From UHGV virus genome UHGV-1366123: DNA of 64,000 bases. One strand, given 5' to 3'. The first letter of the stretch is position 1. Each line of letters starts with the position of its first letter. This document shows, piece after piece, positions 666-62,119 of the stretch. The translations under genes and the position numbers were made by a program. The notes beneath the pieces are model-generated. The model saw only the letters and a program-made list of their open reading frames with translations, was not told the DNA's origin and made no database searches. The DNA is from a virus.

Positions 666-684
666 GATAGGTAACAATTTATAA

Positions 685-735
685 GATGAATGAGGGTGTA
701 CGAACAAGTGCATCCTCATTCATCTGTATTTTCTC
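685..735 (+). terminator. rho-independent-type terminator hairpin
   Basis: Stem gatgaatgagg (685-695) pairs with cctcattcatc (714-724), followed by a T-rich tgtattttctc. Confidence 0.45.
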
Positions 736-744
736 GAAGACTTT

Positions 745-1827
745 ATGCGATACATCCTCGACAAACTGATAATCTTTCTCACAATAATACGATACAAACT
801 TTGGCGATTTCCAATAAACGATGACGGAATAATCGATTCAGTTGTGCTTGATAACCACGAGACACTCACGATAAACGGTTGGAAGCCACTTTCTTCTGTA
901 CATCTAAAAGCTGTTCATGACATATTGGAGGTCGGTGCAGGTGAGTACAAGGTGAGTGGATCTGTCAATCATCTCGTCTATTCTTCCAAGAGTTCACTTG
1001 AAAGCTATCAACCTACGAAAGTCCGAGATCTCTCTTTAGGTGATATCTTAATGACTGTCGATGGTGCACGGAAAGTCTCTTCTCTCAAAAAGTCTCATCA
1101 ACAGATCGTGTTCGATTTATCTGTCGTGGATGAGACTTTGTCGTATTTCTCTGATGGCATACTTTCTCATAACTCTGTAATGAGTGGTATTTTCATTGCG
1201 TGGTACATCTTGACTAACTACGACAAGACCGTTCTTTGTACCAGTGTCAATGCAGACAAGGTCGATGAGCTTGTTGACAAGATTAACTCGATCTTTATGC
1301 ATCTTCCGTTCTATATGAAGCTCGGGATTGAAGTCGATAACGTATCCAAGAAGAAATGGGACAATGGTTGCAAACTGATCGGTGAAACTGCCACTGAGAA
1401 CTCTGGTGCAGGTGAAACCGCAGATCTTCTTTATGCTGACGAGTTTGCACTTATTGAACCAAACATCATCAACGAGTTCTTCCGTGTAGTTTATCCTACA
1501 CTTTCGGCAAGTAAGAAGTCGAAGATGATAATCACCAGCACGGCAAGAGGTATGAACAAGTTCTATCAGCTTTATCAAGATGCACTTGATGGTAAGAACA
1601 ACTTCAACCCAATAAGAATCGACTGGTGGGAAGTCGAAGGAAGGGATGAACAATGGAGACTTGACCAGATTGCAGACCTTGGTTCTGAAGCAGACTTTAA
1701 TCAAGAATATGGCAACTCGTTTATGAGTGGATCGACACTTCTTCTCTCCACTGCTGTCCTCAAGAAACTCGGGAAATACCAGAAGAAGTTCATAAATGGT
1801 GTGTTCTCGAATGACGGTTCTTTATGA
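745..1827 (+). CDS. terL: large terminase (TerL) middle fragment: a 143-aa intein C-fragment (Hint domain from block B to the terminal HN) fused to the ATPase core
   Basis: Hint block B (DNHETLTINGWKPLSSVHL) and blocks F/G (IVFDLSVVDETLSYFSDGILSHN followed by +1 Ser). After the intein the sequence is TerL ATPase-like: SVMSGIFIAWY (post-P-loop), Walker B LLYADEFALI, coupling motif IITSTARG. No Walker A is present in this ORF. Confidence 0.75.
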   Translation: MRYILDKLIIFLTIIRYKLWRFPINDDGIIDSVVLDNHETLTINGWKPLSSVHLKAVHDILEVGAGEYKVSGSVNHLVYSSKSSLESYQPTKVRDLSLGDILMTVDGARKVSSLKKSHQQIVFDLSVVDETLSYFSDGILSHNSVMSGIFIAWYILTNYDKTVLCTSVNADKVDELVDKINSIFMHLPFYMKLGIEVDNVSKKKWDNGCKLIGETATENSGAGETADLLYADEFALIEPNIINEFFRVVYPTLSASKKSKMIITSTARGMNKFYQLYQDALDGKNNFNPIRIDWWEVEGRDEQWRLDQIADLGSEADFNQEYGNSFMSGSTLLLSTAVLKKLGKYQKKFINGVFSNDGSL

Positions 1828-1879
1828 TGAAAATTGTCATTGTTTTTAATTTATAAAAATTAAAAGATAGACGGAAGGA

Positions 1880-2698
1880 ATGATAGAAGATGTTCTCCTT
1901 GAATACGACCAGTACTTTTTTATTCACCCCAACTTTGAACTTCAGTGGTTTAAAGATGAGCGCAATGCGTTCGTTCTATCAATAGACATTGCGGAAGGTA
2001 AAGGAGGTGACTACACGATTATCAACTTCTTCCAAGTCCTTCCAATGACACCTTTAGAAATTGAAGGTGTGAAGATCTTCAACGACGAAGAATCATTCTT
2101 CAAGTTGGTACAAGTCGCCATGTTTAGATCGAACATGGTAGAAACACCAGAATGTGCAAATTGGCTGTATCATTTCATAAACGGTTACATGATACAGGAC
2201 AACTTGAAGATCGTTATCGAGAACAACTTTGAAGGGAATTACTTCCGAAACACACTAATGAACATTTATGGAGAACAGAATGAACTCGACGAAGATGTCA
2301 TATTCTGCAAGTTTCTCTATAATGCTCGAGACGATAACGCCCGAACTTTCAGAGTTGGGATTTATCAAACAGAACCCCGAAAGCAACATTCTTGTAAGAT
2401 ATTCTCCGATCAGCTAAAGAACAATCAACTTGTTCTTACTGAGTTTATGACAATTCAAGAAGCTATGACCTTTGCACGATCAGAAAAATCGTCTTCTTAT
2501 CGTGCAAGCTCGGGACATGACGATTGTGTTATGACGTGTGTAAACGTTGTAAACATTCGAGATATCGAAGAATGGTCAGAACTCGTGGAAATTGTCAGTG
2601 AAAATTGTACAAACGAGTTTTGGAAACTGGTCGACAAGAAGCTCGGGAAACAAGCCGAAAGAAACGACGAACTCGACATATCAGACTATTACGATTAA
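1880..2698 (+). CDS. terL: large terminase nuclease domain (RNase H-like) as a separate ORF
   Basis: FVLSIDIAEGKGGDYTII (first catalytic Asp region) and SSGHDDCVMTCVNV (C-terminal hDDxv motif). Own RBS ggaaggaATG; an in-frame stop lies at 1868, just upstream. Confidence 0.65.
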   Translation: MIEDVLLEYDQYFFIHPNFELQWFKDERNAFVLSIDIAEGKGGDYTIINFFQVLPMTPLEIEGVKIFNDEESFFKLVQVAMFRSNMVETPECANWLYHFINGYMIQDNLKIVIENNFEGNYFRNTLMNIYGEQNELDEDVIFCKFLYNARDDNARTFRVGIYQTEPRKQHSCKIFSDQLKNNQLVLTEFMTIQEAMTFARSEKSSSYRASSGHDDCVMTCVNVVNIRDIEEWSELVEIVSENCTNEFWKLVDKKLGKQAERNDELDISDYYD

Positions 2699-3384: not shown

Positions 3385-4881
3385 ATGATCAATTGTAAAC
3401 AGATCAGAGACAAGATGTCGGTGTCTTATTTCGACGAAAACGGAAACATTGCGATATCTGACATAACAATAGACGATCGTGAAAAGTACGTATGGACAAA
3501 GACAACCGAAGATGATAAGTTTCGTGATAAGACTTACGTATCCCAAGACGGATTTCCAGTTAAAAAGGAACGTAAGTCCTATCTCGACAAATATCGCAAG
3601 ATCGAGTTCTTGCTGTCTCTGCCAGAACGTTTACAAGCGAAGATTTTCTCAAACAATCAACCACGTAAGTTCTTCTGGGATATAGAAACCGAGGTGTTTG
3701 ATGATTTCCCCGATGCAGGAAACCCTGTGGGACGAATCTTCACGCATCAGTATTGTGATGAGTTCGGGAATGGTACTGTCATGGGGATCAAGCCACTTTC
3801 ACAGGTGCAAATCGAATCTATCGAACAGAAGATCAACGACTATCTTTCACAAATCACCGATAAAACACTTCATCAGAGGTATAAGTTCCGTTACATTTAC
3901 TACCCCGATGAGTTCACGATGAATAAAGACTTCGTCGAGAATCACGCAACACGGATGCCGTGTATTTTCGGCTGGAACGTGCTGAAGTTCGATACAAGAT
4001 ATCTCGTCAACAGGTGTAAGAAGACGAACATTGATCCTACGATTTTGTCCCCGAAGAGGATGCTTTACTCGACGATTGCGAAAGATAAGTTTGATCATTC
4101 ATCGAAAATTGAAATCGAACTTCCTCTTCATCGACCAATCATCGACTACATGCAAATCTTTGAGTTCTTTGATAGATCGATTAAGCAGAAGTCATCAATG
4201 TCACTCGACTTTATCGCATCGGAGATCCTTGGTGTCAAGAAGATCCATCATTCCGAAACTCTGATGGAACTCTATGAGAAGGACTATGAACGTTACGTGC
4301 TTTATGGTATCATCGATACCTTCCTCGTGGCGTTGATCGATAAGAAGTGCAGAACATTCGAATCAATGAGCGTTCTTGCAAACCTTCTACGTGTCGAAGT
4401 CGCTCAATCGATGTTCGTCAGTGTTGGGATCGAAACACTCTTGTGTGACTACTATTACAAGCATTACAACAAAGTGTTTGTAAAGGATTATGACAAGCAG
4501 ATTCCCGAAGGTGAAACTTACAGTGCAGGATTCGTTCTACAACCAGGTATTGGTGTTTATGACGGCATCGTCATCTATGACTACGAATCACTGTTCCCTT
4601 CAATTATGCAGATGTTGAACGTTGGTGAAGATGTTTACCTCGGTCATACCGATGATCAAGGTAAAACTTACGTGGACAAACTCGGTGAAGAACACGAACT
4701 TGACGAATCGATGTGTTATTCATCAAGTGGTGCAGTTTACTCAAAAAACAGAGATTCCGCAATTCGAACGATGATTTCGAACATGTTCAACAAACGAGTA
4801 GAAGCAAAACACAAAGAAGCAGAAATCAAAGCAGATATTAATCACTTAAAGCAGATATTAAAAGATAACTTCGGACATTAA
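3385..4881 (+). CDS. family-B DNA polymerase, N-terminal fragment (3'-5' exonuclease domain plus polymerase motif A only)
   Basis: Exo I FFWDIETEV, Exo II CIFGWNVLKFDTRYL, Exo III YGIIDTFLV, pol motif A IVIYDYESLFPSIM. The ORF terminates about 100 aa later, before motifs B (KxxxNSxYG) and C (YGDTDS). Confidence 0.7.
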   Translation: MINCKQIRDKMSVSYFDENGNIAISDITIDDREKYVWTKTTEDDKFRDKTYVSQDGFPVKKERKSYLDKYRKIEFLLSLPERLQAKIFSNNQPRKFFWDIETEVFDDFPDAGNPVGRIFTHQYCDEFGNGTVMGIKPLSQVQIESIEQKINDYLSQITDKTLHQRYKFRYIYYPDEFTMNKDFVENHATRMPCIFGWNVLKFDTRYLVNRCKKTNIDPTILSPKRMLYSTIAKDKFDHSSKIEIELPLHRPIIDYMQIFEFFDRSIKQKSSMSLDFIASEILGVKKIHHSETLMELYEKDYERYVLYGIIDTFLVALIDKKCRTFESMSVLANLLRVEVAQSMFVSVGIETLLCDYYYKHYNKVFVKDYDKQIPEGETYSAGFVLQPGIGVYDGIVIYDYESLFPSIMQMLNVGEDVYLGHTDDQGKTYVDKLGEEHELDESMCYSSSGAVYSKNRDSAIRTMISNMFNKRVEAKHKEAEIKADINHLKQILKDNFGH

Positions 4882-4884: not shown

Positions 4885-5142
4885 ATGGAAATAAAGCTAT
4901 TAGGAAAGAAGATCCTCATTAAGCTCAATGAGGTCGAAAAGCAGGTCGATGGCTTCGAACTGGTACAACATAACGATGTAGACCAAACAGCAGGTGTCGT
5001 CACGAATGTTGGTATTGGTGTCACAGAAGTCAAAGTCGGTGATAAAGTAATCGTCAACAAGTTCTCTGGTATTGAGGTGCTTATCGAGGGTGATAAGTTC
5101 AAGGTAGTAGAGGAACACGAAATATTAATCATTGTAAGATAA
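4885..5142 (+). CDS. groES: GroES-like co-chaperonin
   Basis: 85 aa; LGKKILIKL...VKVGDKVIVNKFSGIEV...EHEILIIV matches the GroES pattern. Confidence 0.7.
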   Translation: MEIKLLGKKILIKLNEVEKQVDGFELVQHNDVDQTAGVVTNVGIGVTEVKVGDKVIVNKFSGIEVLIEGDKFKVVEEHEILIIVR

Positions 5143-5151
5143 ACAGACTGA

Positions 5152-6741
5152 ATGAACGCTGTAGATGTAAAAAGTGGATCAGAAGCCAGAGAGCTGATCC
5201 TCGTTGGTGCAAAGACGATCCACGACGTTGTTGGGTCTACTCTGGGACCTGGCGGTCGAAATGTCATCATCAAGCACAACACGTACGATGTACCACAGGT
5301 CACTAAAGATGGTGTGACTGTAGCAAGAAAGATGAAGCTACAGAACTATTGGCACAACATAGGCTGTCAACTCGTAAAGCAAGCATCAATGCGAACTGCA
5401 GTTGATGCAGGTGATGGAACAACGTCTTCTGTTGTGATGGCGTATACGATGATGAAACTAATCGACGGACTTCTAAATGAGAATCCCGAGATTGATGTTC
5501 ATCGACTTCGTCACGAAATGGAAAAGATGAAGGATGTTCTCATTGAAAAGCTTCGGGAAATCGCCACACCGATCGTTGATATTCAGCAGGTCTTCGATAT
5601 CGCAAAGATCTCCACGAACAATGATGAGAAACTTGCAGGTCTTCTTGCAGAGATCTATGGGAAGATCGGTAAAGATGGGATAATCGTTCTTGAACAATCA
5701 CAACTTTCTGATATCACCTATTCGATCGAATCTGGATTCCGATTTGATGGCGGTTGGCAGTCTCATTATTTCGTAAAGGACAAATCAAAGATGTCGTTTG
5801 GATCTGACGATTGTGCAATCTTCATCACAAATCACAAGATCCAAGACGGAAAGACGATGCTCTCGGCACTTTCAAGAATCTATGGTACAGGTGTCCGTGA
5901 CCTTTTGATCATTGCGGAAAACATCGAAGGTGAAGCACTATCGACCTTGATCGCCAATAACCAGAGTGGGAAGATGAACATTTGTCTCGTCAATCCACCA
6001 TATTACGGACAGAAGCGTGAAGAATACCTCACTGACCTCTCCATTTCTCTTGATATGAAGCCACTGATGGTGGGAGACCAATCCGTCACCCCTCTTTCGT
6101 TCACAGAAGAGTACTTCTCTTGCGGTCGAAGCGTCTTTGTGGATAAAAACACCACAACGATCAGAAATGACAAGGAAAGTGTATCGTCTGCCGTCGAAGA
6201 GCATATCTCAAATCTGAAGTCTCTTATGGATTCCGACGAGGAAGACAAGGAATGGATCGAGAAGAGAATAGCGACCCTAAGGTCATCAGTTGCCGTCATC
6301 AAGGTCGGTGGGAATTCAGAATCTGAAGTTTATGAACACAAGGATAGACTTGAAGATGCGATTTGTGCTATAAGATCAGCATACAAGGATGGAATAGTCG
6401 CAGGTTGTGGTATCACGTACCTAAGACTAATCTCTGCACTTGATCCTTCTCTTGACACGTTCCATATCTTGAAATCTGGACTTGAATCCGTGTTCAAGAA
6501 GATTATGATCAACTCATGCATATCAGAGGAAGAAGAATCGTCGATTCTCTACTTCATAGGTGAAGATGAAGCGTATGGTTATGATGCCAAGAAACGTCAG
6601 AAGTCGTATAACTCGATCCAAGATGGCATCATCGACTCGGCACGTGTTATAAAAAACTGTATCGAGAACTCGATATCGGTCGCTATCATGTTTATGATCT
6701 CTGACAACATCGTTATGGAAATCGATGAATCGATTATTTAG
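5152..6741 (+). CDS. groEL: GroEL-like chaperonin (Hsp60 family)
   Basis: 529 aa; AVDAGDGTTSSVVMAYTMM (GroEL ATP-binding DGTTT-like motif); equatorial/apical/intermediate domain pattern. Confidence 0.8.
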   Translation: MNAVDVKSGSEARELILVGAKTIHDVVGSTLGPGGRNVIIKHNTYDVPQVTKDGVTVARKMKLQNYWHNIGCQLVKQASMRTAVDAGDGTTSSVVMAYTMMKLIDGLLNENPEIDVHRLRHEMEKMKDVLIEKLREIATPIVDIQQVFDIAKISTNNDEKLAGLLAEIYGKIGKDGIIVLEQSQLSDITYSIESGFRFDGGWQSHYFVKDKSKMSFGSDDCAIFITNHKIQDGKTMLSALSRIYGTGVRDLLIIAENIEGEALSTLIANNQSGKMNICLVNPPYYGQKREEYLTDLSISLDMKPLMVGDQSVTPLSFTEEYFSCGRSVFVDKNTTTIRNDKESVSSAVEEHISNLKSLMDSDEEDKEWIEKRIATLRSSVAVIKVGGNSESEVYEHKDRLEDAICAIRSAYKDGIVAGCGITYLRLISALDPSLDTFHILKSGLESVFKKIMINSCISEEEESSILYFIGEDEAYGYDAKKRQKSYNSIQDGIIDSARVIKNCIENSISVAIMFMISDNIVMEIDESII

Positions 6742-6820
6742 ATGAAACTATGACACCAAGCAGATTCATAAGAAACTCGAAAACAGAACTTTTAAACAAC
6801 ATCATCAGTCAATCATTATT

Positions 6821-7963
6821 ATGAGCAACGAAGTTTTTGATTTTGGTGGGATTTTCGATATGAAGTCCGATGACTTCAAGCAGAAGGAAACCACCCAATT
6901 CTCCAACCCAGACTTTTACTCTCCTCGCATCGACGACGAGAATGTAAAGGACAACATCTATCAGTCAAAGCTGAGATTCCTACCAAATGTCAACGTCGCC
7001 CCCAACGGAGAGCGCACGAACATCGTAGTAAAGCACGTCTACTACGTTCCCGATCCAGATAACCCTGGGCAGAAGTGCTACATCGATGCACCATCGAACG
7101 AGCCTAAGGCGAAGGATATCGCATCTGTAGCGTTCATGATGTTCGGCTACGATAAGAGCAAGATCTACAGATCAGATGCTCCTGCAATCGTCAAGAAGAA
7201 TGCAAAGCAGTTGAAGCGCAACACCTACCACTACTCTTTGGTGCAGGTCATCAAGGACACACAACATCCAGAACTCGAAGGATCGGTAAAGATCTTCAGA
7301 TACGGTGGTGTGATCTACGAAAAGATCATGCAACTTATCAACGGTAACCCAGCTCTTGGGATCAATCCAATCATCCCATTCGATCCTCTCAATGGTAAGG
7401 AATTCATCATGGTTCTTTCCAAGGGTCAGAATGATCAAGGTCAAGAACTTAACACCTACATGCAGTCGAGATTCGTCGATGATCGTTCCGCAATCACGAT
7501 TGATGGACGAGAAATGACCGATTCTAATGAGGACAAGCAGGAGATCTTCAACTTCCTCAAGGAAAAGTCTCCCGATCTCTCACAGACGATGTTCCAAAAG
7601 ATGACGGAAGACGATGTTGAACGTCTCAATCGAGCAGTCCGTGATGTCATTGACGATGATAAGTGGTTCGGTATGGCTTATCAAGCATGTTATGGGAAGC
7701 CATTCATTCCCGATGCAGTCCGTGAATCTGTCGTGTCCACAGAGAAGTACGATGATGAAGATATCGAAGTCGAAGAACAGGTAGTCGAAGAACCAGTGAA
7801 GAAATCTCCACGACGAGAAGAACCAGCTTCCTCTACGATGTCCAAGTTCAAGTCCCTCAAGGAAGAAGCTGAAAAGCCTGCACCTGCAAAGAAGCCGACT
7901 GATAAGCAACCATCGATCTCTGACATGATGGAAGATATCGATGACGATCTCGACTTTGAATAG
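6821..7963 (+). CDS. single-stranded DNA-binding protein, T4 gp32-like
   Basis: KLRFLPNVN...KHVYYVPDP...KCYIDAPS core, with a long acidic C-terminal tail ending DDDLDFE. Confidence 0.6.
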   Translation: MSNEVFDFGGIFDMKSDDFKQKETTQFSNPDFYSPRIDDENVKDNIYQSKLRFLPNVNVAPNGERTNIVVKHVYYVPDPDNPGQKCYIDAPSNEPKAKDIASVAFMMFGYDKSKIYRSDAPAIVKKNAKQLKRNTYHYSLVQVIKDTQHPELEGSVKIFRYGGVIYEKIMQLINGNPALGINPIIPFDPLNGKEFIMVLSKGQNDQGQELNTYMQSRFVDDRSAITIDGREMTDSNEDKQEIFNFLKEKSPDLSQTMFQKMTEDDVERLNRAVRDVIDDDKWFGMAYQACYGKPFIPDAVRESVVSTEKYDDEDIEVEEQVVEEPVKKSPRREEPASSTMSKFKSLKEEAEKPAPAKKPTDKQPSISDMMEDIDDDLDFE

Positions 7964-11010: not shown

Positions 11011-11400
11011 ATGACTGTAAGAGAATACATCAACACATTTGAAGACGCAGGTCTCATTCTTGCGCATATCGAACTTGTCAAAGATGGGAAGTATGGGAAA
11101 GAAACCGTAGATTTTGATATCGACAACGATGAAATCGAAGATGTCAAAGACCAAGTCGATAAGCTCATATACAAATCATTCGATAGGTGCGTGTATCCAG
11201 ATCCAATAAGAACTGAGGAAGACATCTACGAGTATCTCAAGACTTGTGTTGGTTATGGTACTGATGATGATCCAACATACTTAGAATATAAGGCAATATG
11301 GGAAAAAGATCCATGGACTAAGTTCTTCCAATCGATTGACGAACAGTGTCCTTGGTTTGAACAAGATGGTTACTACTTCATGGACACTTATAACATGTAA
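11011..11400 (+). CDS. acidic paralogue family member P3
   Basis: MTVREYINTFEDAGLILAHI...DPWTKF...DGYYFMD. Confidence 0.6.
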   Translation: MTVREYINTFEDAGLILAHIELVKDGKYGKETVDFDIDNDEIEDVKDQVDKLIYKSFDRCVYPDPIRTEEDIYEYLKTCVGYGTDDDPTYLEYKAIWEKDPWTKFFQSIDEQCPWFEQDGYYFMDTYNM

Positions 11401-11419
11401 AAAGGAAAGAGAAAGAAAT

Positions 11420-11821
11420 ACGACTGCAGAACAATATATCAAGACACTACCAGATTCGGAGCTTATTCTCTCTTATATCGCATTGGTAGTATCTGAAGAC
11501 ATCGAAGGAACGGAAGGTATGGATGCCGACATCAACAACGATGAATACGAAGATGTCAAAGACCAAGTCAACACACTCATCGAACAAGCTCGTGATCGTG
11601 CGATCATCAATTATCCTATAAGATCCGAAGAAGATACTCTCAAATATTTCGAAGACACCTATGGTGAATTCATTGAGAATAATGAGGATCTCCAAGAATA
11701 TGAGAAGAAATGGAAAGAAAACCCATGGAAGGAATTCAAAGATTCTCTTAATGAAGTGAAAGCTTATTACAAGAATGGTAAGTGGTACGAACACAATGAT
11801 TATTACTTCATAGTCTGGTAA
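11420..11821 (+). pseudogene. acidic paralogue family member P4 with ATG->ACG start
   Basis: Paralogues begin atg-act-g..; here it reads aat-ACG-act-gca (T-to-C at start-codon position 2). The track ORF 11336-11821 only extends upstream by chance, inside P3. Confidence 0.4.
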
Positions 11822-11848
11822 TTCGTATTCATAGAAAAGATAAAGATT

Positions 11849-11891
11849 GACGTGGCGAAATGTTTGATTTCGCCACGTCTGTATATAAAAG
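11849..11891 (+). promoter_or_regulatory. terminator hairpin plus TGTATATAAAAG promoter-like motif (cassette boundary)
   Basis: gacgtggcgaaat...atttcgccacgtc stem, then tgtatataaaag. Confidence 0.45.
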
Positions 11892-11907
11892 AAAATTCTG
11901 ATATAAA

Positions 11908-12252
11908 ATGAAAACGAGATTAAGAGAATATATCGAAACGCTACCAGATTCATACATCGTTTCTCAATATCTTACATGTGTTGAACTTGGATATACGCAC
12001 GATAAAGAGATTATCGATCTATACGAACAACATGCTCATGATCGTCTACTCATCGATCGTCCAATACACACTAGTTATGACGTTATGGAATACTTTGATG
12101 ATACCTTTCCCGATTGGGAAAACGATCCAGATCTCGTAGAAGAAAGAAAGAAATGGGAAGAAGATCCATGGGGAAAATTATACAAAGTACTCGACGAAAT
12201 GGGTACTTGGTGTGGATATGGTGGTTGTTATTTCTTGGCTGAAAAACGATAA
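11908..12252 (+). CDS. acidic paralogue family member P5
   Basis: MKTRLREYIETLPDSYIV...FPDWENDPDLVEERKKWEEDPWGKL. Confidence 0.6.
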   Translation: MKTRLREYIETLPDSYIVSQYLTCVELGYTHDKEIIDLYEQHAHDRLLIDRPIHTSYDVMEYFDDTFPDWENDPDLVEERKKWEEDPWGKLYKVLDEMGTWCGYGGCYFLAEKR

Positions 12253-12292
12253 CACAACTTCTGATAGATATATAAAAAATAACGATAGAAAA

Positions 12293-12643
12293 ATGGAAAA
12301 TTTAACGCTAATAGAATATATAAGGACGCTACCTAATAGTGAACTCATCGAAGCGTACATGGGATCTCTCGCAATTGGACAAATGAGAGATAAGGAAATT
12401 ATTGATATGTACGAACAACATGCTCGTGAACGTTTAATCTTTGATCATCCAGTGCATAAAGAAGATATTATTGGAATCTTTGATGAAATGTTTCCAGATT
12501 GGGAAAACAACCCAGACCTCGTAGAAGAGAGAAAGGAATGGGAAGAATATCCATGGTATAAGCTACGACAAGCACTTGATGCAACGTACGGTAATAATTG
12601 GCATGAATACCAAAGTTATTATTTCGTTGACAATGTTCGATAA
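12293..12643 (+). CDS. acidic paralogue family member P6
   Basis: MENLTLIEYIRTLPNSELIEAYM...FPDWENNPDLVEERKEWEEYPWYKL; near-duplicate of P5. Confidence 0.6.
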   Translation: MENLTLIEYIRTLPNSELIEAYMGSLAIGQMRDKEIIDMYEQHARERLIFDHPVHKEDIIGIFDEMFPDWENNPDLVEERKEWEEYPWYKLRQALDATYGNNWHEYQSYYFVDNVR

Positions 12644-22840: not shown

Positions 22841-22900
22841 GATATTCTTGAAGGCACAGAGAGGTATTTCCGTTGCGCTCTGTGCCTTCAAGAATATAAA
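22841..22900. terminator. 20-bp perfect inverted repeat hairpin carrying the TTTCC..TTGCGCTCTG core, followed by AATATAAAAAATCG
   Basis: atattcttgaaggcacagag ... ctctgtgccttcaagaatat. Confidence 0.45.
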
Positions 22901-22915
22901 AAATCGATACAAAGT

Positions 22916-23674
22916 ATGGGAAAAAGAAAGAAGATACAAGAAAAGTTCAAGAAACTGAGGAAGTCGGGGTGTCTTAAAGATATCGCATCGATCAGAAATA
23001 CAAACCCCGAAATGATGGGCAAAGGGGTGACTATCACAAACATGGCAGACACCTTCAACCTCTTCGATTTCAAGGCAGAAAACATCAACATTCATGCGGT
23101 GGCCAGATCACTGTCGAATCAATGCAGATACAATGGATCGACGAATGGGTTCTACTCTGTGGCTCAACATTGCGTTCGTATGGCAGAATCCGCTTTGCTT
23201 GCATATGGTGACGTTCGACTTGCTCTCGCAATTCTGCTCCACGACGCTACAGAGTGCTACGTTTCCGATATCCCTTACACGTTGAAGAGGGAACTTCCCG
23301 ATCATATCAAGCAGATCGAGAAGGATATCGAGAAGGTGATTTTCTCACACTTTGGTGTGGGTGAATACCTCGATTCAAAGCTTATGAAGTTCATCGACAC
23401 ACAAATCTGTAATGATGAACTCGAGTTCCTTCTTGGTCAGCAGATCGGCATTGACGAGTATCTCTCAGACAAACTCAGAGATCTCGACAATCGTGATTGG
23501 TCACGTGGTGGCATTTACCCATATCAAAAGCCAATCGTGTTCGAGTTCGACTATTGGTCTCCAGAGAAGGCATATGAACAATTCATCACACACTTCTATA
23601 AGTACACTTACCTCATCGAAAAGTATAAGGGAAAGGAAGTGTTGACGAAGTTTGGTGTTAACACAGAGAAATAA
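22916..23674 (+). CDS. HD-domain phosphohydrolase (YfbR-like 5'-nucleotidase family)
   Basis: HAVARSLSNQCRY ... LAILLHDATECYVSDIP (H...HD motif). Confidence 0.55.
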   Translation: MGKRKKIQEKFKKLRKSGCLKDIASIRNTNPEMMGKGVTITNMADTFNLFDFKAENINIHAVARSLSNQCRYNGSTNGFYSVAQHCVRMAESALLAYGDVRLALAILLHDATECYVSDIPYTLKRELPDHIKQIEKDIEKVIFSHFGVGEYLDSKLMKFIDTQICNDELEFLLGQQIGIDEYLSDKLRDLDNRDWSRGGIYPYQKPIVFEFDYWSPEKAYEQFITHFYKYTYLIEKYKGKEVLTKFGVNTEK

Positions 23675-41145: not shown

Positions 41146-41216
41146 TTGTCCCTCATTGATTCGAACAAAGACTAACAGAGCCAAGGTCTGTTGTGCTACC
41201 ATTACACCAAAGGACA
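41146..41216 (-). tRNA. tRNA-Gln(TTG) candidate
   Basis: Acceptor TGTCCTT/AGGGACA with 2 GU pairs; D-arm GTGTAATGGTAGCAC; anticodon stem ACAGA/TCTGT, loop CCTTGGC (C33 is unusual); T-loop TTCGAAT. Confidence 0.5.
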
Positions 41217-41260
41217 ATTCGAATGTCCCTCCGCCGTCTACTACGTTCAAGGGACTGATG

Positions 41261-41335
41261 GGTGATGGATGGGACTTGAACCCACAACCAATAGAACCAC
41301 AACCTATTGCTCTAACCAATTTGAGCTACCATCAC
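41261..41335 (-). tRNA. tRNA-His(GTG)
   Basis: GTGATGG acceptor; D-arm GCTC-AAATTGGTTA-GAGC; anticodon loop TTGTGGT; T-arm GTGGG-TTCAAGT-CCCAT; 3' CCATCAC. Confidence 0.7.
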
Positions 41336-41423
41336 AGACGTAGTGAGAGGTTTCGCTCCTCTGAATATCTTCATCAAGAAGCACTACGTTTGATAAAAAG
41401 GTGGCGAGTTGTCCATACTCTTC

Positions 41424-41496
41424 TCAGTCTGGTAGGATTCGAACCTACATCATCTAAGAACCACCTTATAGGAATTTCCGATTATTCTACAGACTG
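41424..41496 (-). tRNA. tRNA-like gene with an aberrant anticodon arm (4-bp stem, 6-nt loop)
   Basis: Perfect acceptor CAGTCTG/CAGACTG, D-arm GAAT-AATCGGAA-ATTC, T-arm GTAGG-TTCGAAT-CCTAC, but the anticodon region TATAAGGTGGTTCTTAG does not fold canonically. Confidence 0.4.
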
Positions 41497-41862
41497 AACA
41501 ACAAACGATAATGAAGATTCAAAATGCTGAATATCTGCAAATCGGAAACTATGATTGATTCATCTTTTAGACAGCTATGGACAATACCGAATGGGGTATC
41601 AAACCAGTAACTTGAAGATTTTTATAGATTGCTGTAAGTCCATAATCTAAAAGACGTTTTTTCTATCTTTTTCGTCGAAATCTTTACTGCAGACGTTATC
41701 TATGAGCCAATTATGAAGATTCTGTTTGCTGTGTGTCTACAGATCCCGACATTAAGAATTCTTTAAAAGAACGCTTTGTGAATGATGACTTCCCAGTGGA
41801 CTACGTAGTTTTAGGAGCAATTGCATAGTAATTTGCTGTGAATCCAATAGATCATCATTTTG

Positions 41863-41947
41863 AGGAAGAACAGGGATTCGAACCCTGGGAACCTTGCAGT
41901 TCAACGGTTTTCAAGACCGTCGCAATCGACCACTCTGCCACTCTTCC
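41863..41947 (-). tRNA. tRNA-Ser(TGA), type II with long variable arm
   Basis: Acceptor GGAAGAG; anticodon arm ACGGT-CTTGAAA-ACCGT; long variable arm; T-arm CAGGG-TTCGAAT-CCCTG. Confidence 0.65.
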
Positions 41948-42292
41948 AATATTGAGAAAACGATGGAAATCAGACTTACACTATAATCCCGAAACGTCAC
42001 GATCTCGATCATCCAACCCCGTGGAAATCAGTACCACTTAGAGATTTAGCTTTAGAAAGTTGGACGACTTTCATCGATTTTCTCAAGCACCTTTTTTGTT
42101 GACAACCAGCAACTTAGGAGATAACACCCATTAGAGCAATGACCTTCCCATATTCATAGGTCTTCTCTGGATAGAGTTGATGTTCAATATTGCGATGCCT
42201 TCTCAAAATCCCAACCCTATGAAAGACTTCTCAAAGACAACCGTTGTATATCGTTTCAAACGGTACTAAGTCGCTTTTTCTTTTTATTTTTG

Positions 42293-42362
42293 CGAAGAGA
42301 AGAGGGATCGAACCTCTCTGATCTTTATGGCTAGATCATCAGACCTTTTTCTGAATCTCTTC
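42293..42362 (-). tRNA. tRNA-like gene with a non-canonical anticodon arm (8-nt loop AGCCATAA, or 10-nt loop)
   Basis: Acceptor GAAGAGA/TCTCTTC, D-arm CAGA-AAAAGG-TCTG, T-arm AGAGG-TTCGATC-CCTCT; the anticodon arm folds as GATCT-AGCCATAA-AGATC. Confidence 0.35.
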
Positions 42363-42405
42363 ATAAGTCTTATTATTTGATCTTCTTATCGGTTTCGTTT
42401 CTTTT

Positions 42406-42873
42406 TTATGTCCGTACAATATAAGCATCATAACCATACTGCAAACCATCAAAATAAGAGCTTATGTATTCATAACAACCTCGTAATGTTAGATATGCGT
42501 AATAGTCTGATCTTGAATTGTAGTTGCCATTTTGATAGCTATAACAAGCATTGGAGAAGTTGCTTATAAGCCGTTCCAATTTGGCAATGGTTTCATCAAC
42601 CTCTTCAGACGACTTCCAACGTAAGTGACTTAGTTTCACTCCTATAATGAAATCATCGATTTCTCGTTGATTTCTTTTTATCGTGAGCTTAAACTCATAG
42701 GGGCTGTCATAAGGATCGTCTTTGATATGTTCACGTGTCTTTGTTGTTGTTATTTCAACTTCAAACATCGGTTCTCCATCGTAATATATCGTCTGTACAG
42801 ATTGGAATATCTTGATGTTTGTCTTGTACACACCTCTATCAAGACCTTCATAAAACTCTGTAGGGCTAATCAT
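42406..42873 (-). CDS. hypothetical protein
   Basis: 155-aa minus-strand ORF. Confidence 0.35.
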   Translation of the reverse strand: MISPTEFYEGLDRGVYKTNIKIFQSVQTIYYDGEPMFEVEITTTKTREHIKDDPYDSPYEFKLTIKRNQREIDDFIIGVKLSHLRWKSSEEVDETIAKLERLISNFSNACYSYQNGNYNSRSDYYAYLTLRGCYEYISSYFDGLQYGYDAYIVRT

Positions 42874-42892
42874 TGATCTCTGTTTGATCAGT

Positions 42893-43846
42893 TCATTTAG
42901 TCGTAGTTTGTTTCTTCTTGATGATCATTCTAAAATAAGTCTGCTCGCCATTCACAGACAAATATTTCCCGTCGTTTCCCCTTCTGGATGTCACAATCTC
43001 AAATTGTTGAGGATTGAATTTATACAAGAATGTTATCGGAACCCCCATGCAACCATTGTAATCTCGTGGTATATCCTTGACCCTATCGACATTTATACCA
43101 TCATAATTGTCGTATTTGGGATATTCATGTTCGTGTCCATAGTAGTTTTTTGTAAGCGGAATATCTTCATGTCGCATAGAGTGGTTCAAATTCGTAAACC
43201 ACAGACAATTATTGGTGGGCGTGATCATATTACCAGATTCGTCCATCCATGTTTTTTTCATGTAGGGTTCATAATGGGCTGGTATGATAAACCCAGAAAA
43301 TTCGTTCCCACGATTTACACCAAGCCATGCCTTACCATCTTGAACGGATTTGAAGATTTCTTTGTTGGTGATAGAATTGATATTCCCAATAATGAGAAAG
43401 AGCTTATCGTATCTGATCAGTTGTGTCATATATTCACGGAACAACGAAAATGGTGGATTTGTAACAACTATGTCAGATTGTTCCAGCAAATCGATACTTT
43501 CTTGACTACGAAAGTCGCCATCACCATTGAAGTAAACAACATCAGCTGTCTTTGGATCTGTATCGACGAGTTCTGTCCCTGTGTATTCAAAGAAAAAACC
43601 ACGACTGTTTTCCTTATAACAAGATGCAATCACCTTCCGAAGTCCCAATTCTTTGAAATTGGAAACGAAGTATTTGAAAAAGTTACTCGTCAGAGGATCA
43701 TCACAATTGCAATACACAACTTTCCCTTTAAAATGGCTTTCATAATGTCGCAATTCTCTTTCGATATCAATAAGTTGCGTATAGAACTCGTCGTTCTTTT
43801 GCTTTCTAGCATTACGAAGTAACTTGCTGGTTGTTGCCCTTGCCAT
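42893..43846 (-). CDS. DNA N6-adenine (amino) methyltransferase
   Basis: DIVVTNPPF catalytic motif IV (NPPF), DEFYTQ N-terminal motif, CNCDDP. Confidence 0.55.
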   Translation of the reverse strand: MARATTSKLLRNARKQKNDEFYTQLIDIERELRHYESHFKGKVVYCNCDDPLTSNFFKYFVSNFKELGLRKVIASCYKENSRGFFFEYTGTELVDTDPKTADVVYFNGDGDFRSQESIDLLEQSDIVVTNPPFSLFREYMTQLIRYDKLFLIIGNINSITNKEIFKSVQDGKAWLGVNRGNEFSGFIIPAHYEPYMKKTWMDESGNMITPTNNCLWFTNLNHSMRHEDIPLTKNYYGHEHEYPKYDNYDGINVDRVKDIPRDYNGCMGVPITFLYKFNPQQFEIVTSRRGNDGKYLSVNGEQTYFRMIIKKKQTTTK

Positions 43847-43849
43847 ATT

Positions 43850-44300
43850 TCCGTCTTTTAATATAAATCTTCAGAATAGAGAATCGTCTTATCTTTTACA
43901 TCTTCTATTTGATCAGCTTCTTTAGCTATCTTACAAACTTCATACCTATCAACAAATATCACTTTAGAAGTGTAGAAGCCTTATCGTATGTGAAAAATCT
44001 GCGTTTTATCCAGTTCTCACTTCTTGTTTCAACCTGCCATTACTTTTTAGGAACACGAGGTTCGGTCATCCATAAGAGGGCAGTCCGCAAGCGTAAATTC
44101 GGTGCTACGAACACCTACTCGATTTTTTATATGTTAGACAGTTTGAAGTTTTCTTTGTCCTTCAATGAGAATGTTCTTCGAAGCGTTTATATCTCTGTCG
44201 TGATATTCACCACATTCGGGACAAGTCCAAAACCTATCACCGAGTTTCAAGTCTTTCTTCTTGTAACCACAACATAAACAAGTCTTTGAACTTGGATAGA
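43850..44300 (-). ncRNA. putative omega-RNA/right-end region of the TnpB element (boundaries unknown)
   Basis: Inference only: omega-RNAs of IS200/IS605 TnpB overlap the 3' end of tnpB and extend into the downstream non-coding DNA; a 287-bp non-coding stretch follows the tnpB stop. Confidence 0.25.
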
Positions 44301-45276
44301 ACCTATTGATAAGAACAACTCGCTTATCATTCATAAGAGCCTTATATTGCAATATCGACTTGAACCGATAAAATCCAGACTCTTGGATAGCATTCGCAAG
44401 ATAACGATTTCCAAGCATCCCTTTAATATTCAAGTCTTCCATGAACACCACGTCGTATGATTTGAGGATCTCGTTCACAACTGAGTGGATGTAGTTCTCT
44501 TTCTTGTTCGTTATATTCGCAATCACTTTTGCAAGTCTGATTCTCTGTTTGTTCCTATTGTTTGAACCTTTGACCTTTCTGGATAGTTGACGATGAAGTC
44601 TTGTGATCTTCTTTTCCTCCTTCTTGAAGAAGTGTTTGTTTTCAAACACAAATCCATCAGAGGTTATGACGAAATCTTTCACACCAAGATCAATACCGAC
44701 TTGCTTGTTGGTCTTTTCAAACTTTACAAATTCTGCTTCGGGAATGTCGATAAGGATTGATAAGAAGAAATTCCCACTCTTGGTTTTCGAGAGAGTTGCA
44801 CTTCTTATGTTATCTTTGTACTTCTGTAAGCGTTTGTGATACAAGTCAGAACAACGGAATCTGAGTTTTTGAAGAGAAGTGATTAGTGTTATATGTTTCG
44901 TTTCGAAAGTGTTCCTCTTTGAAATAGCATTACGAGGAAACAATGCTGATTGTTTGTCTTTCTTTGATTTAAACTTTGGAAAGCCTTTATGATGATTGAA
45001 GAAGTTTTGATAAGCACCGACCATCTGTTTGATTGCTTGGTTCATCACCTTTGTGTTCTGTTCTCTCAACCAAGCATATTGTTCATCTTTCAACAATGAT
45101 CCGTGGAAATATTTCGATAGATCGCTTTCGCTTAGGTTTGTCTTGTCCGTTTCATAAGCCTTTTGTTTTCTATCGAGCATGTGATTATAGACAAAACGAT
45201 AAGCACCAAGAACCTTGTTGAGTTCTTGTTCCTGCGCTTTGTTTGGATATAACCTTATTTTAATCGCTCTAAACAT
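44134..45276 (-). CDS. tnpB: TnpB (IS200/IS605-family OrfB, RNA-guided RuvC-like endonuclease)
   Basis: N-terminus MFRAIKIRLYPNKAQEQELNKVLGAYRFVYN; C-terminal zinc finger CLCCGYKKKDLKLGDRFWTCPECGEYHDRDINASKNI. Confidence 0.8.
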   Translation of the reverse strand: MFRAIKIRLYPNKAQEQELNKVLGAYRFVYNHMLDRKQKAYETDKTNLSESDLSKYFHGSLLKDEQYAWLREQNTKVMNQAIKQMVGAYQNFFNHHKGFPKFKSKKDKQSALFPRNAISKRNTFETKHITLITSLQKLRFRCSDLYHKRLQKYKDNIRSATLSKTKSGNFFLSILIDIPEAEFVKFEKTNKQVGIDLGVKDFVITSDGFVFENKHFFKKEEKKITRLHRQLSRKVKGSNNRNKQRIRLAKVIANITNKKENYIHSVVNEILKSYDVVFMEDLNIKGMLGNRYLANAIQESGFYRFKSILQYKALMNDKRVVLINRFYPSSKTCLCCGYKKKDLKLGDRFWTCPECGEYHDRDINASKNILIEGQRKLQTV

Positions 45277-45295
45277 GCCTATGATTGATTATCCA

Positions 45296-45520
45296 TTACA
45301 GATCTTTTTCTTCTGCTAATATCCTATCGAATTCCAATCTCAGACAGCGAAGATAGCCGTTCATGTATTCATACTTAGTCTGCTGGAAGAACTTCTCATC
45401 TGGTGTCAACTTCTCAAACTCTAAAGATTGGATGAAATCGAGTTGCTTCAAAGTGACTTCTTTGAACCTTTCATAGCTCTTTAAAGCTTTCCGTCTCCTC
45501 TGTCCAAATTCTTCAAACAT
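45296..45520 (-). CDS. hypothetical small protein
   Basis: 74-aa minus-strand ORF ending 19 bp before tnpB. Confidence 0.3.
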   Translation of the reverse strand: MFEEFGQRRRKALKSYERFKEVTLKQLDFIQSLEFEKLTPDEKFFQQTKYEYMNGYLRCLRLEFDRILAEEKDL

Positions 45521-45526
45521 AACCTA

Positions 45527-45739
45527 TTAATCATTAGAGATTTTTGTAACAGCACCGAACTTCTTCAACTTTTCTGCAAGATCAAGGACATCTTGATCGT
45601 TCTCTGATTCATATAGAACTGGTTCATTCTGACGGACAAGTTCCATGGCATAACTCAAAGAAATCTTTCGATAATCCATCAAGCACTTTATAACTTGAAG
45701 AGGTGCTTGACCTTTGTCTATGAGAATCAGCTTATACAT
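45527..45739 (-). CDS. ribosomal protein bL12 (L7/L12) C-terminal-domain-like or ClpS-like mini-protein
   Basis: YKLILIDKGQAPLQVIKCLMDY..ISLSYAMELVRQNEPVLYES..DVLDLAEKLKKFGAVTKI aligns by eye to the bL12 CTD ([52 protein letters not shown]); ClpS has the same fold and a similar N-terminal pattern. Confidence 0.5.
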   Translation of the reverse strand: MYKLILIDKGQAPLQVIKCLMDYRKISLSYAMELVRQNEPVLYESENDQDVLDLAEKLKKFGAVTKISND

Positions 45740-45764
45740 TTTGCTTGTTTTTATTTTTAAAAAG

Positions 45765-45831
45765 TGCTTCGTGAAGGATTCGAACCTTCATCAATTCCGT
45801 CGAATCGCTCTGGCCATTGAGCTAACGAAGC
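45765..45831 (-). tRNA. truncated tRNA-like gene; the anticodon arm is replaced by a short tetraloop hairpin
   Basis: Acceptor GCTTCGT/ACGAAGC, D-arm GCTC-AATGGCCA-GAGC, T-arm GAAGG-TTCGAAT-CCTTC, but only 16 nt (GATTC-GACG-GAATT) lie between the D-arm and T-arm. Confidence 0.4.
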
Positions 45832-46033
45832 CCTCATAGATTCCCAGTTTTAACGGAAACTGTGGCGGACTATGAACCCCTGCGTGAAACCGCACTTGAA
45901 CTTCAACCAAGATCTGTACGTACTTTAACCCAAGTGATAGGTTTTGAACCCTAATTGAAGCAGAACTATTCCCATTCTGAGAGGGGACGTTATCAACTTA
46001 AAAATTGGTGAAACGTCCTAAAGTCAACATCGG

Positions 46034-46106
46034 TACGCCATGAAGGATTTGAACCTTCGACCGCCAAGGTATAAGCTTGGAACTCTAACCACTGAGTTAA
46101 TGGCGC
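46034..46106 (-). tRNA. tRNA-Ile(TAT) candidate
   Basis: Acceptor GCGCCAT/ATGGCGT; D-arm ACTC-AGTGGTTA-GAGT; anticodon arm CCAAG-CTTATAC-CTTGG; T-arm GAAGG-TTCAAAT-CCTTC. Confidence 0.6.
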
Positions 46107-46141
46107 ATTTTCATCTTTCTATTTTCTTATTGATGGATCTT

Positions 46142-46687
46142 TTAGAACGTTTTACTGTATCCAAAAACGTCGGAAAGATCTCTCAGAGAATCATTCATAA
46201 GTATCTCGTGGACATTGTTGTAAACCGTACCAAGAAGATTCGATCCTCTCCATTTCGATTTATCAACTATACGAATATCAGTTTCAGAAAGTCCACATCC
46301 CCAGATTTTGTCATAAGGACTGGCTTCTACAAACTCATAACCTTCATTAATTAGTTGTGTGTAGTGATCTCTGATTTTCTTTGAAGATCTTAGTTTCATC
46401 AGTACCACAAAGAGCATCACATCATATCTGACAGATGACCAACGACCATCATTGTAGTTTCGAACAAGTCTTCCAAGCTCTTTACAAAAACGTGGGTTAT
46501 CAGAATTCTTGAGGATCTGCATTGCGATATCTTCGTCTCCGAAGTACTTTGCTTTCAAGAACATGAACAATGATTCACCGCAATGGAAAACAAGACCATT
46601 ATAGTTGATCTCGGATTTATAGAAGTTGCTGTAAAAATCCGAACCAGTGAAGAAAGTCACCAATTTATGATCTTTGAAAATCTTCAT
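46142..46687 (-). CDS. NADAR/YbiA-like (DUF1768) protein
   Basis: FFTGSDFYSNFYKSEINYNGLVFHCGESLFMFLKAKYF...PRFCKELGR...RWSSVRYDVMLFVVLMKL...DKIWGCG matches the NADAR pattern. Confidence 0.55.
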   Translation of the reverse strand: MKIFKDHKLVTFFTGSDFYSNFYKSEINYNGLVFHCGESLFMFLKAKYFGDEDIAMQILKNSDNPRFCKELGRLVRNYNDGRWSSVRYDVMLFVVLMKLRSSKKIRDHYTQLINEGYEFVEASPYDKIWGCGLSETDIRIVDKSKWRGSNLLGTVYNNVHEILMNDSLRDLSDVFGYSKTF

Positions 46688-46709
46688 CGTGTCTCTTGTT
46701 CTTTTTTTG

Positions 46710-46782
46710 TGATTCCAGTGGGGCTTGAACCCACAACCCCTGCATTAAAAGTGCAGTGCTCTACCTGTTGAGCTATGAAATC
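46710..46782 (-). tRNA. tRNA-Lys(TTT)
   Basis: Acceptor GATTTCA/TGGAATC; D-arm GCTC-AACAGGTA-GAGC; anticodon arm CTGCA-CTTTTAA-TGCAG; T-arm GTGGG-TTCAAGC-CCCAC. Confidence 0.65.
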
Positions 46783-47120: not shown

Positions 47121-47203
47121 AAGGAAGGTATTTTCCTTGCGCTCTGAGAGGTTCAAGAATATGAAAATAGCGGAGAATAGATCAGAGCGCAAGGAAAGTA
47201 CCA
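47121..47203. repeat. palindromic ~85-bp element, copy A
   Basis: aaggaaggtattttccttgcgctctga ... tcagagcgcaaggaaagtacc, with inner core gaatatgaaaatagcggaga. Confidence 0.6.
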
Positions 47204-61935: not shown

Positions 61936-61944
61936 ACGACTTCA

Positions 61945-62028
61945 CGGAAGGCACTTTCCTTGCGCTCTGAAGATTTCGGTGTTGTTCTCATAGCTCTTTG
62001 ATATACAGAGCGCAAGGAAAGCACCTCG
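61945..62028. repeat. palindromic ~85-bp element, copy H
   Basis: cggaaggcactttccttgcgctctga ... cagagcgcaaggaaagcacc. Confidence 0.55.
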
Positions 62029-62039
62029 TCTTTATCCGA

Positions 62040-62098
62040 AGATATATTCGAAAACCGATTGGGGTCATCTGATGCTATTTTCAGATGACCCCAATCGG
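62040..62098. terminator. bidirectional terminator hairpin
   Basis: aaaaccgattggggtcatctga ... tcagatgaccccaatcggtttt. Confidence 0.5.
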
Positions 62099-62119
62099 TT
62101 TTCTTATTTCTCTTTCCTT

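Follow-up and report, generated by a model that had tools for sequence, protein, structure and literature searches.

Judged by its sequence, the large terminase subunit (TerL) of the phage represented by the virus genome UHGV-1366123 is encoded in three separate open reading frames (ORFs), one of which gives the nuclease domain as a protein of its own. All three lie in the 64-kb stretch of this genome studied here (64,000 nucleotides (nt), the whole stretch of DNA that was analysed, hereafter the window). From sequence comparison and structure prediction we consider it highly probable that the large terminase is made from three polypeptides and that its N and C halves, which meet within the P-loop of the ATPase domain, are joined by protein trans-splicing. 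The phage is of human mouth origin, with a genome of ~150 kb. The features that carry this reading, with the evidence for each, including the ratio of nonsynonymous to synonymous substitution rates (dN/dS), are the following:

Positions 61474 to 61815, plus strand: TerL N-extein, residues 1-114 (PHROG 5989, tblastn with a contiguous TerL, dN/dS).
Positions 61816 to 61935, plus strand: N-terminal intein fragment (IntN), 39 amino acids (aa) and a TAA stop (aligns to the IntN of relatives with Cys at intein residue 1, or Cys1, and to contiguous inteins at the same site).
Positions 745 to 1173, plus strand: C-terminal intein fragment (IntC), 143 aa (intein profile matches, AlphaFold and Foldseek, dN/dS).
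Positions 1174 to 1827, plus strand: TerL C-extein, consisting of Ser+1 and the rest of the ATPase domain, ORF residues 144-360, and a TGA stop (Terminase_6N, PHROG, the contiguous TerL P0022).
Positions 1880 to 2698, plus strand: TerL nuclease domain, a separate 272-aa ORF (P0022, 3c6a, PHROG 24361, dN/dS).

The N half is the ORF at 61474-61935 (153 aa), which a preliminary description, made from the sequence alone, had taken for a TerL N-terminus with a Walker A motif cut short at ...ASRQIGK. This identification is upheld by PHROG 5989 (terminase large subunit; E = 1e-15, profile positions 91-170) and by tblastn tiling with P0022, a contiguous, intein-less TerL of 603 aa, whose residues 1-119 fall on 61474-61839. 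The similarity to the TerL profile stops at residue 115-116, and the N-extein ends at Lys114 in the truncated Walker A motif ...ILASRQIGK. The 39-aa tail that follows, SKGWGSVINGLEGDFKISDLFPRTLINRLRSKLYSTIYG, runs to the TAA stop and is composed of Ser1 (Ser115 of the ORF), block A (SKGWGSVINGLEGDFKISDLF) and a C-terminal helix (TLINRLRSKLYSTIYG); it is free of cysteine. The proposed resemblance of this Ser-started tail to Hint block A holds: its block-A region can be aligned with the N-fragments of Cys1 relatives as well as with contiguous inteins inserted at that TerL site, and a nucleophile is the first intein residue within block A, right after ...SRQIGK. The N-half relatives P0121-P0125 (50-94% identity) all end in ...SRQ[IV]GK-Ser followed by 31-47 residues, and these five full-length N-fragments share, without exception, Ser1 and the Leu-Tyr of the C-terminal helix.

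In the C half, the ORF at 745-1827 (360 aa), PHROG 5989 positions 170-330 are matched from residue 144 on. Since the N half matches positions 91-170 of the same profile, the two halves abut at one TerL profile position. Pfam Terminase_6N matches residues 148-330 (E = 1.9e-7), PHROG 2 and PHROG 36964 match the C-extein as well, and this part carries the Walker B motif LLYADEF and the motif ITSTARG. The preceding 143 residues begin with a helix (residues ~1-24) and continue through block B (...SGSVNH76LVY, His codon 970-972), block F (...VFD124LSV, Asp codon 1114-1116) and block G (GILSH142N143, 1168-1173); the +1 residue, Ser144 (codon 1174-1176), stands directly after ...GILSHN. Block B had been placed at NHETLTINGW in the preliminary description, but the alignment with VidaL and gp41-1 puts it at SGSVNHLVY, and the segment named earlier, NHETLTINGWKPLSSVHL, sits upstream of the true block B. 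No cysteine occurs among the 39 + 143 intein residues. The reading frame 5' of the ATG at 745 is shut by TGA at 691-693 with no alternative start codon between, which agrees with the earlier statement that no in-frame N-extein lies upstream.

On profile and fold evidence, the head of the ORF at 745-1827 is a Hint domain, as had been proposed. A profile of the IntC family compared with the PDB retrieved VidaL (8e-15), gp41-1 (4e-14), CatC (4e-9) and NrdJ-1 (3e-6), and the repeat with a larger IntC alignment gave VidaL at 1e-15 and CatC at 1.4e-9. CatC (PDB 6dsl_B) is the consensus atypically split TerL intein; its chain residues 4-7 align to about residue 25 of the IntC, and therefore the Cat IntC starts just past the extra helix found here. 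Pfam Intein_splicing matches 18 of the 19 IntC family members. On single ORF sequences, Pfam did not detect the Hint domain, which the family profile alone revealed; a single-sequence search reached VidaL at a suggestive E = 0.32, and a word-indexed protein search found the family with the full ORF as query and gave no match with the truncated IntC (154 aa).

A fused IntN and IntC was modelled with AlphaFold, with a family alignment that gave depth to IntC only. The mean predicted local distance difference test score (pLDDT) was 80.5, reaching 86-97 across most of the IntC beta-structure, and without exception the Foldseek matches in the PDB at E ≤ 0.001 (n = 45) were inteins or Hint domains, the best being VidaL (E = 6e-8, root-mean-square deviation 1.2 Å, 106 columns). 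A model built from the single fused-intein sequence was uninformative (pLDDT 41).

The residues of the splicing chemistry are conserved in the family. The block-B His76, the block-F Asp124 and Ser141 are invariant in the 19 aligned IntC segments; His76 is invariant across 26 aligned sequences as well and aligns with the block-B His of VidaL and gp41-1. His142-Asn143 is nearly invariant, being kept in 90% or more of the sequences, and each of the 22 C-half proteins examined, namely, the window's own and 21 relatives, has Ser or Thr at +1. The catalytic residues of IntC are kept down to ~25% identity and Ser1 down to ~50%. The succession of blocks F and G ending in ...GILSHN, then Ser+1 and the post-P-loop ATPase, was thus read correctly, and the features of a class 1 intein are found together: Ser1 in block A, the block-B His, the block-F Asp, the block-G His-Asn, Ser+1 and the Hint fold.

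The break falls between the Lys and the Ser of the Walker A GK(S/T), and the +1 Ser is the Walker A serine itself. The predicted join of ...SRQIGK to SVMSGIFIAWY (...SRQIGKSVMSGIFIAWY) matches the ...SRQIGKSWVTAIFIVWY of a contiguous relative, in line with the earlier claim that splicing rebuilds SRQIGKS. Residues 114-321 of P0022 fall on 1174-1797 (55% identity) and residues 326-582 on 1880-2653 (40% identity), and the three TerL pieces add up exactly (114 + 217 + 272 = 603 aa) to the length of P0022.

The last of these pieces had been missed: the two partial ORFs of the preliminary description both exist as described, but TerL has a third, the nuclease ORF at 1880-2698. It matches the gp17 nuclease domain of RB49/T4 (3c6a, E = 4e-7), its Asp-containing motifs SIDIAEGKGGDY and HDD align to LDCSEGRGQDY and HDD of gp17, and it is also matched by the terminase family PHROG 24361. 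The parts of a T4-type terminase are therefore present, namely, an ATPase with Walker A and Walker B and an RNase-H-like nuclease, with Walker A restored upon ligation only and, in contrast to gp17, with the two domains on different polypeptides. Between the ATPase and nuclease ORFs lies one further element:

Positions 1828 to 1879, plus strand: ATPase/nuclease spacer of 52 nt, with stop codons in every frame, a TATAAAA motif and, ahead of the ATG, a purine-rich ggaagga run.

The 52-nt spacer is kept in same-species contigs, and the two-ORF layout recurs in two relatives, L110 (56-nt spacer) and L112 (82-nt spacer). Recoding or a frameshift that would join the two ORFs was rejected because of the stops in all three frames, TAA among them. 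An intron at the TerL breaks was likewise rejected: Rfam found none in the window, where its only matches were seven transfer RNAs (tRNAs), and the spacer is too short. Because this break carries no intein and the nuclease motifs are kept, the nuclease must act as a separate subunit.

Measured from the end of the C half to the start of the N half, the distance is 59.6 kb (~59.5 kb had been estimated), with both halves on the same strand and the C half first. Two same-species contigs in IMG/VR hold both halves in the order and on the strand seen in the window, and their starts are 55,097 bp (UViG_3300006251_000001) and 58,217 bp (UViG_3300045988_118132) apart, against 60,729 bp in the window. 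Identical proteins occur in at least five independent human oral metagenome assemblies, and the same ORF ends in at least eight independent contigs from differing samples and assemblers. Five same-species IMG/VR contigs of 144,765 to 150,601 bp are mutually circularly permuted, which suggests that they are complete genomes of ~150 kb. The possibility that the window is a wrapped circle of ~64 kb, which would bring the halves to 2.8 kb from each other, was rejected because other genes continue beyond both ends and the same-species contigs measure 145-151 kb.

Both gene neighbourhoods are kept in two more distant pairs, P0002 with P0123 (SRR32496762) and P0003 with P0122 (SRR19906134), in which the C half is 73-74% identical. 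IntC-TerL and the nuclease ORF have MazG and an unknown gene before them and an unknown gene, DNA polymerase, Cpn10 and Cpn60 after them; the N half comes after a Metallophos gene, an AAA_23 gene, further genes, a helicase and an unknown gene. The TerL pieces are intact as ORFs in lineages at 97%, 74% and 73% identity. In pairwise comparisons of the window with same-species contigs, dN/dS was 0.05-0.075 for IntC, 0.09-0.28 for IntN, at most 0.016 for the N-extein, 0.015-0.047 for the ATPase extein and 0.02-0.05 for the nuclease ORF. Such strong purifying selection indicates that both intein halves are maintained and are not decaying. The synonymous rate (dS) is higher in the intein than in the adjoining extein (C half, 0.42-0.62 vs. 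0.27-0.45; N half, up to 0.64 vs. at most 0.31); this difference among same-species genomes may reflect recombination or different codon constraints.

The trans-splicing interpretation of the preliminary description is thus supported by the sequence and model data, and the following course of events can be proposed. Gene A (61474-61935) would give the TerL N-terminus through the Gly-Lys of Walker A, followed by the 39-aa IntN with Ser1, and gene B (745-1827) would give the 143-aa IntC, Ser+1 and the remaining ATPase domain. After translation, the intein fragments would associate, with the block-A strands of IntN completing the Hint fold of IntC; the helix at the end of IntN and that at the start of IntC probably add affinity. 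Class 1 splicing with oxygen nucleophiles only would proceed by an N-O shift at Ser1 and transesterification to Ser+1, then by cyclisation of Asn143 and an O-N shift, and would release the free intein and a 331-aa ATPase domain with an intact P-loop, ...SRQIGKSVMSG..., the predicted junction peptide of which is ...ASRQIGKSVMSGIF.... Gene C (1880-2698) would provide the nuclease as a separate protein that works non-covalently with the ATPase. In this scheme, we infer that the fragments associate, that splicing follows this chemistry, that the helices contribute as stated, that the nuclease assembles non-covalently and that the genes are co-expressed.

Several observations weigh against the proposal. 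AlphaFold gave the block-A part of IntN, a segment without alignment depth, a pLDDT of 52-58, with no strands and no confident docking. The block-B Thr position is occupied by Ser73 (S73-V-N-H76), where most Cys1 relatives and the active VidaL have Ala. The NX histidine (a His after Lys or Arg, upstream of block B) typical of Ser1/Ser(Thr)+1 inteins (PMC10189870; Pasch 2023) is not recognisable in the IntC: its histidines before block B are N-H38, V-H53 and V-H57, none of them preceded by Lys or Arg. His53 is nearly invariant, with Val or Ile before it in the window's clade, and occurs in Cys1 relatives too. The three TerL ORFs share no single obvious promoter motif, and their co-expression is assumed. 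An intact, contiguous terL elsewhere had been named as an argument against the trans-splicing reading; tblastn with P0022 revealed no further TerL-like sequence in the window, and the search for a second copy reached the 64-kb window and ~20 kb of flanks of the ~150-kb genome.

Alternatively, the halves might be held together and never ligated, with the intein remnants and their helices serving as a dimerisation handle. A precedent is the fragmented ribonucleotide reductase held together by mobile-element-derived interaction domains, as outlined in PMC3045599. In favour of this reading, the helices that flank the split form a conserved pair, and the block-A part of IntN, which was not confidently docked, is also the segment under the weakest constraint (dN/dS up to 0.28); the neighbouring ATPase/nuclease break, being intein-free, must rely on non-covalent assembly. 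However, all residues of the splicing chemistry are conserved family-wide, which a mere handle would not need, and ~180 intein residues inside the P-loop are hard to square with an active ATPase, as far as the P-loop NTPase fold allows a judgement. The position of the break in the P-loop is the main argument against a purely non-covalent assembly, and we regard such a handle as unlikely.

Still less credit can be given to the idea that the split pieces are decaying relics and that an intact terL lies elsewhere in the ~150-kb genome, ~70 kb of which extends beyond the window and the fetched flanks; we judge it highly improbable. The exteins and IntC are under purifying selection (dN/dS 0.00-0.075), the ORFs are intact in all three of the lineages at 97%, 74% and 73% identity, and the window holds no second TerL, while the pieces that it does hold sum to 603 aa. 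An assembly or frameshift artefact, or breaks healed by introns at the RNA level as documented for fragmented terL in other large Bacteroidota phages (the Jug phages, with terL split by group I introns; PMC12880540), has only a minimal chance of being correct, given that the ORF ends recur in at least eight independent contigs, that by Rfam the window is intron-free and has only the seven tRNAs, that the flanks of the P-loop break encode a conserved Hint domain, that the 52-nt spacer amounts to an excess of ~70 nt over a contiguous relative against the ~206 nt reported for small introns, and that the nuclease ORF is not adjacent in the relatives L015 and L018.

Searches with the whole ORF yielded a family of 346-379-aa proteins composed of IntC and ATPase (45-97% identity), along with 605-628-aa proteins composed of IntC, ATPase and nuclease and intein-less TerLs of ~603-609 aa. 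With IntC alone, 155 matches at E ≤ 0.001 were obtained among 1.84 billion representative proteins, and in ~103 of the 150 clusters listed the match begins no more than 30 residues from the N-terminus, as in an IntC-first ORF. By these counts, the intein family is abundant in metagenomes and mostly split at this site. Among the 80 IMG/VR loci inspected (out of at least 382 confirmed intein matches), a TerL N-extein lies within 10 kb in 42, usually 0.03-3 kb upstream and usually as a separate ORF ending in GK-Cys with a block-A-like tail. Four loci (L022, L036, L069 and L080) have a contiguous intein, in L040 the N half is downstream on the other strand, and in the P0011 and P0014 lineages the halves are more than 10 kb apart. 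In another split relative, L072, intein residue 1 is Thr (...SIRQSGK-TLSFLSF...), which is unusual.

Two subtypes can be distinguished. In the short one, an IntN of 30-37 aa and an IntC of 114-123 aa correspond to the size class of AceL-TerL and GOS-TerL; in the long one, a helix ends IntN and another opens IntC. The intein of the window is helix-bearing, but its block-A hairpin is short. In the contiguous intein of L022 the two helices are connected via a short loop, and hence the split lies in the loop of a helical insertion. An IntC at the start of the ORF followed by a C-extein that does not look like TerL was seen in L033, L049-L052, L060, L064, L067, L078, L079, L089 and L090; since IntC is fused there to such C-exteins, the atypically split family occupies other host genes too.

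The relatives also bear on how the gene was broken. LR756500.1 is a textbook case of a fractured gene: its N half (Cys1) and C half lie in a row with, between them, a 366-aa ORF that has weak Vsr-like and restriction endonuclease (REase) matches (MTES_1575/DUF559). L015, a Cys1 member of the three-ORF clade, has its halves 1.9 kb apart with two ordinary genes between, and a homologue of the Vsr-like endonuclease gene (11032-12306) stands directly after its ATPase ORF, where the window has the 52-nt spacer; this placement points to a free-standing homing endonuclease as the origin of the ATPase/nuclease break, too. Free-standing genes of the Vsr-like/REase type flank the TerL pieces of L001 as well (392-2239 and 5123-6223). 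The halves are 12.5 kb apart in LR756501.1. The nuclease ORF is absent within 10 kb of the ATPase ORF in L015 and L018, and in such P0010-like and P0014-like lineages TerL may be encoded at three dispersed loci. L015 has, in addition, an ORF for the C half of DNA polymerase (6288-7499) directly upstream of its TerL N half.

In the fractured-gene model of Dassa et al. 2009, step IV consists of endonuclease loss and genomic uncoupling, as for DnaE (PMC2677866), and the window matches this step. It differs from the fractured genes in that no endonuclease gene lies between the halves or adjoins either of them in the window, the 59.6 kb being made up of ordinary phage genes, and in that the C half is upstream of the N half. 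Earlier stages of the pathway are seen in the relatives, and the window fits its end state. In the history that we envisage, a P-loop intein would have been broken, probably by a free-standing homing endonuclease gene, after which the endonuclease would have been lost and the halves would have drifted apart.

The nearest described systems are the natural split inteins of phage large terminases. As summarised in PMC11766414 and PMC13014065, through which the original reports (Thiel 2014; Bachmann & Mootz 2015; Stevens 2018) are cited here, AceL-TerL has fragments of 25/104 aa with Cys1/Cys+1, GOS-TerL has fragments of 37/115 aa with Ser1/Cys+1, and Cat is the consensus. The window intein shares with them the host protein, the short IntN (25-37 aa in theirs, 39 aa here) and long IntC (104-115 and 143 aa, respectively), the homology to CatC and the split between blocks A and B. 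The S2 position, after the first short helix, is assigned to AceL-TerL and GOS-TerL in PMC13014065, and the 39/143-aa division found here falls at the same position, as the preliminary description had implied in placing the split between the two blocks; two ORFs are present, with block A and the first helix only in IntN and blocks B, F and G in IntC. The published IntN range for atypically split inteins is 15-37 aa (PMC13014065). Ser1 is shared with GOS-TerL. Unlike both, the window intein combines Ser1 with Ser+1, is cysteine-free and has an extra helix on either side of the split; its halves are unlinked in the phage genome, and there is a third TerL ORF. The +1 residue (Walker A Ser vs. Cys) suggests that the insertion site is other than that of AceL-TerL and GOS-TerL.

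VidaL (PDB 6vgv), the closest solved structure by profile and fold, is atypically split likewise. Its host protein is not known to be TerL. VidaL is cysteine-dependent and has an S1 split and a 16-aa IntN (PMC13014065), unlike the window intein. PolB16 OarG is, according to a 2026 paper, the only natural cysteine-less atypically split intein known (PMC13014065). The window intein resembles it in the Ser1 and Ser/Thr+1 chemistry without a catalytic cysteine (Ser115 and Ser144 here), the short IntN and the phage-type DNA-metabolism exteins. PolB16 OarG has its own features in a DNA polymerase B host, an S1 split (after strand beta2) and a 15-aa IntN (PMC13014065, PMC10189870); it uses the NX histidine that we could not recognise in the window intein and has two non-catalytic cysteines, against none here. 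The classic fractured-gene inteins gp41-1, NrdJ-1 and IMPDH-1 and the intein of cyanobacterial DnaE are canonically split, with a long IntN and a short IntC, unlike the window intein. The Klebsiella phages Magnus and Menlow carry contiguous, cis-splicing inteins in the TerL P-loop (28% identity), and the Magnus records annotate an intein at that site. One unbroken tblastn segment (query 23-342) begins at IntC residue 23 and continues across the junction into the ATPase, which puts the C-terminal splice junction of these inteins at the TerL position seen in the window.

Non-coding elements were recorded next to both halves:

Positions 680 to 725, plus strand: 5' leader of the C half, with TATAAGA at 680-686, hairpin arms at 684-695 and 714-725 and a T-rich run.
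Positions 61936 to 62119, no strand assigned: two strong hairpins after the N half (fold energy -90.5 kcal/mol, z = -11.9).

The leader arrangement and the hairpin position recur in L110 and L112 with a different stem sequence, which suggests compensatory change; the hairpin may terminate the upstream gene or act as a leader structure. After the N half, the first hairpin (61950-62025, directly after the stop) is a copy of a repeated intergenic element of ~80 nt, and the second (62052-62098), which stands between convergent genes, resembles a bidirectional terminator. Other copies of the ~80-nt element (GGAAGGTACTTTCCTTGCGCTCTG...CAGAGCGCAAGGAAAGTACC, several with TTCAAGAATAT.AAAA in the loop) are at 47127-47200, ~22860-22940, ~48575-48650 and, on the minus strand, ~48920-49000; its 10-mer core was found nine times against 1.95 expected. 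TATAAGA is enriched approximately twofold in the window (21 found vs. 9.9 expected), TATAAA[AG] is situated between -19 and -28 relative to the TerL N half, the nuclease ORF and several replication genes, and TAAATAA[CG]NAAA occurs upstream of the head protease (27889) and major head protein (29904) genes, among others. One late promoter common to the three TerL ORFs is unsupported, since TATAAA[AG] also precedes replication genes and the head genes differ.

The gene set of the window is T4-like, with Cpn10/Cpn60, gp32-like, UvsX-like, DnaB-like, Dda-like and clamp-loader proteins, a head protease, a major head protein and a gp5-like baseplate hub. The seven tRNA genes lie at 41146-46782 on the minus strand. 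A family-B DNA polymerase ORF (3385-4881, 498 aa) comprises the exonuclease domain and approximately the first 142 of the 453 positions of PF00136; from its sequence, the polymerase appears to be split as well, with its C-terminal half outside the window.

The finding is a variant on the known atypically split TerL inteins and not a new kind of system. Only tentatively, and against our own leaning, could it be described in full as a cysteine-free, atypically split, mesophilic, serine-only intein without an NX histidine that assembles an essential phage motor from unlinked genes. As a second cysteine-less atypically split intein, unrelated to the first, it would be a useful start for redox-independent protein labelling, its appeal being the 37 °C habitat, the Ser1/Ser+1 pair, the lack of cysteine and a 39-aa IntN with a core of ~21 aa, and it would test the generality of the proposed NX-histidine mechanism. 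In genome annotation, such TerLs are called as three "hypothetical" or partial genes. The separate TerL nuclease of this clade bears on packaging models in which the link between ATPase and nuclease belongs to the motor. If this full reading is true, TerL is an enzyme of three genes with two breaks, of which trans-splicing heals one and the other, between ATPase and nuclease, is never healed; the nuclease would then serve the ATPase in trans, and the timing and amount of the pieces could gate the maturation of the motor. An essential packaging ATPase can be maintained over long spans of evolution in unlinked gene pieces, and the layout persists in three lineages down to 73% identity.

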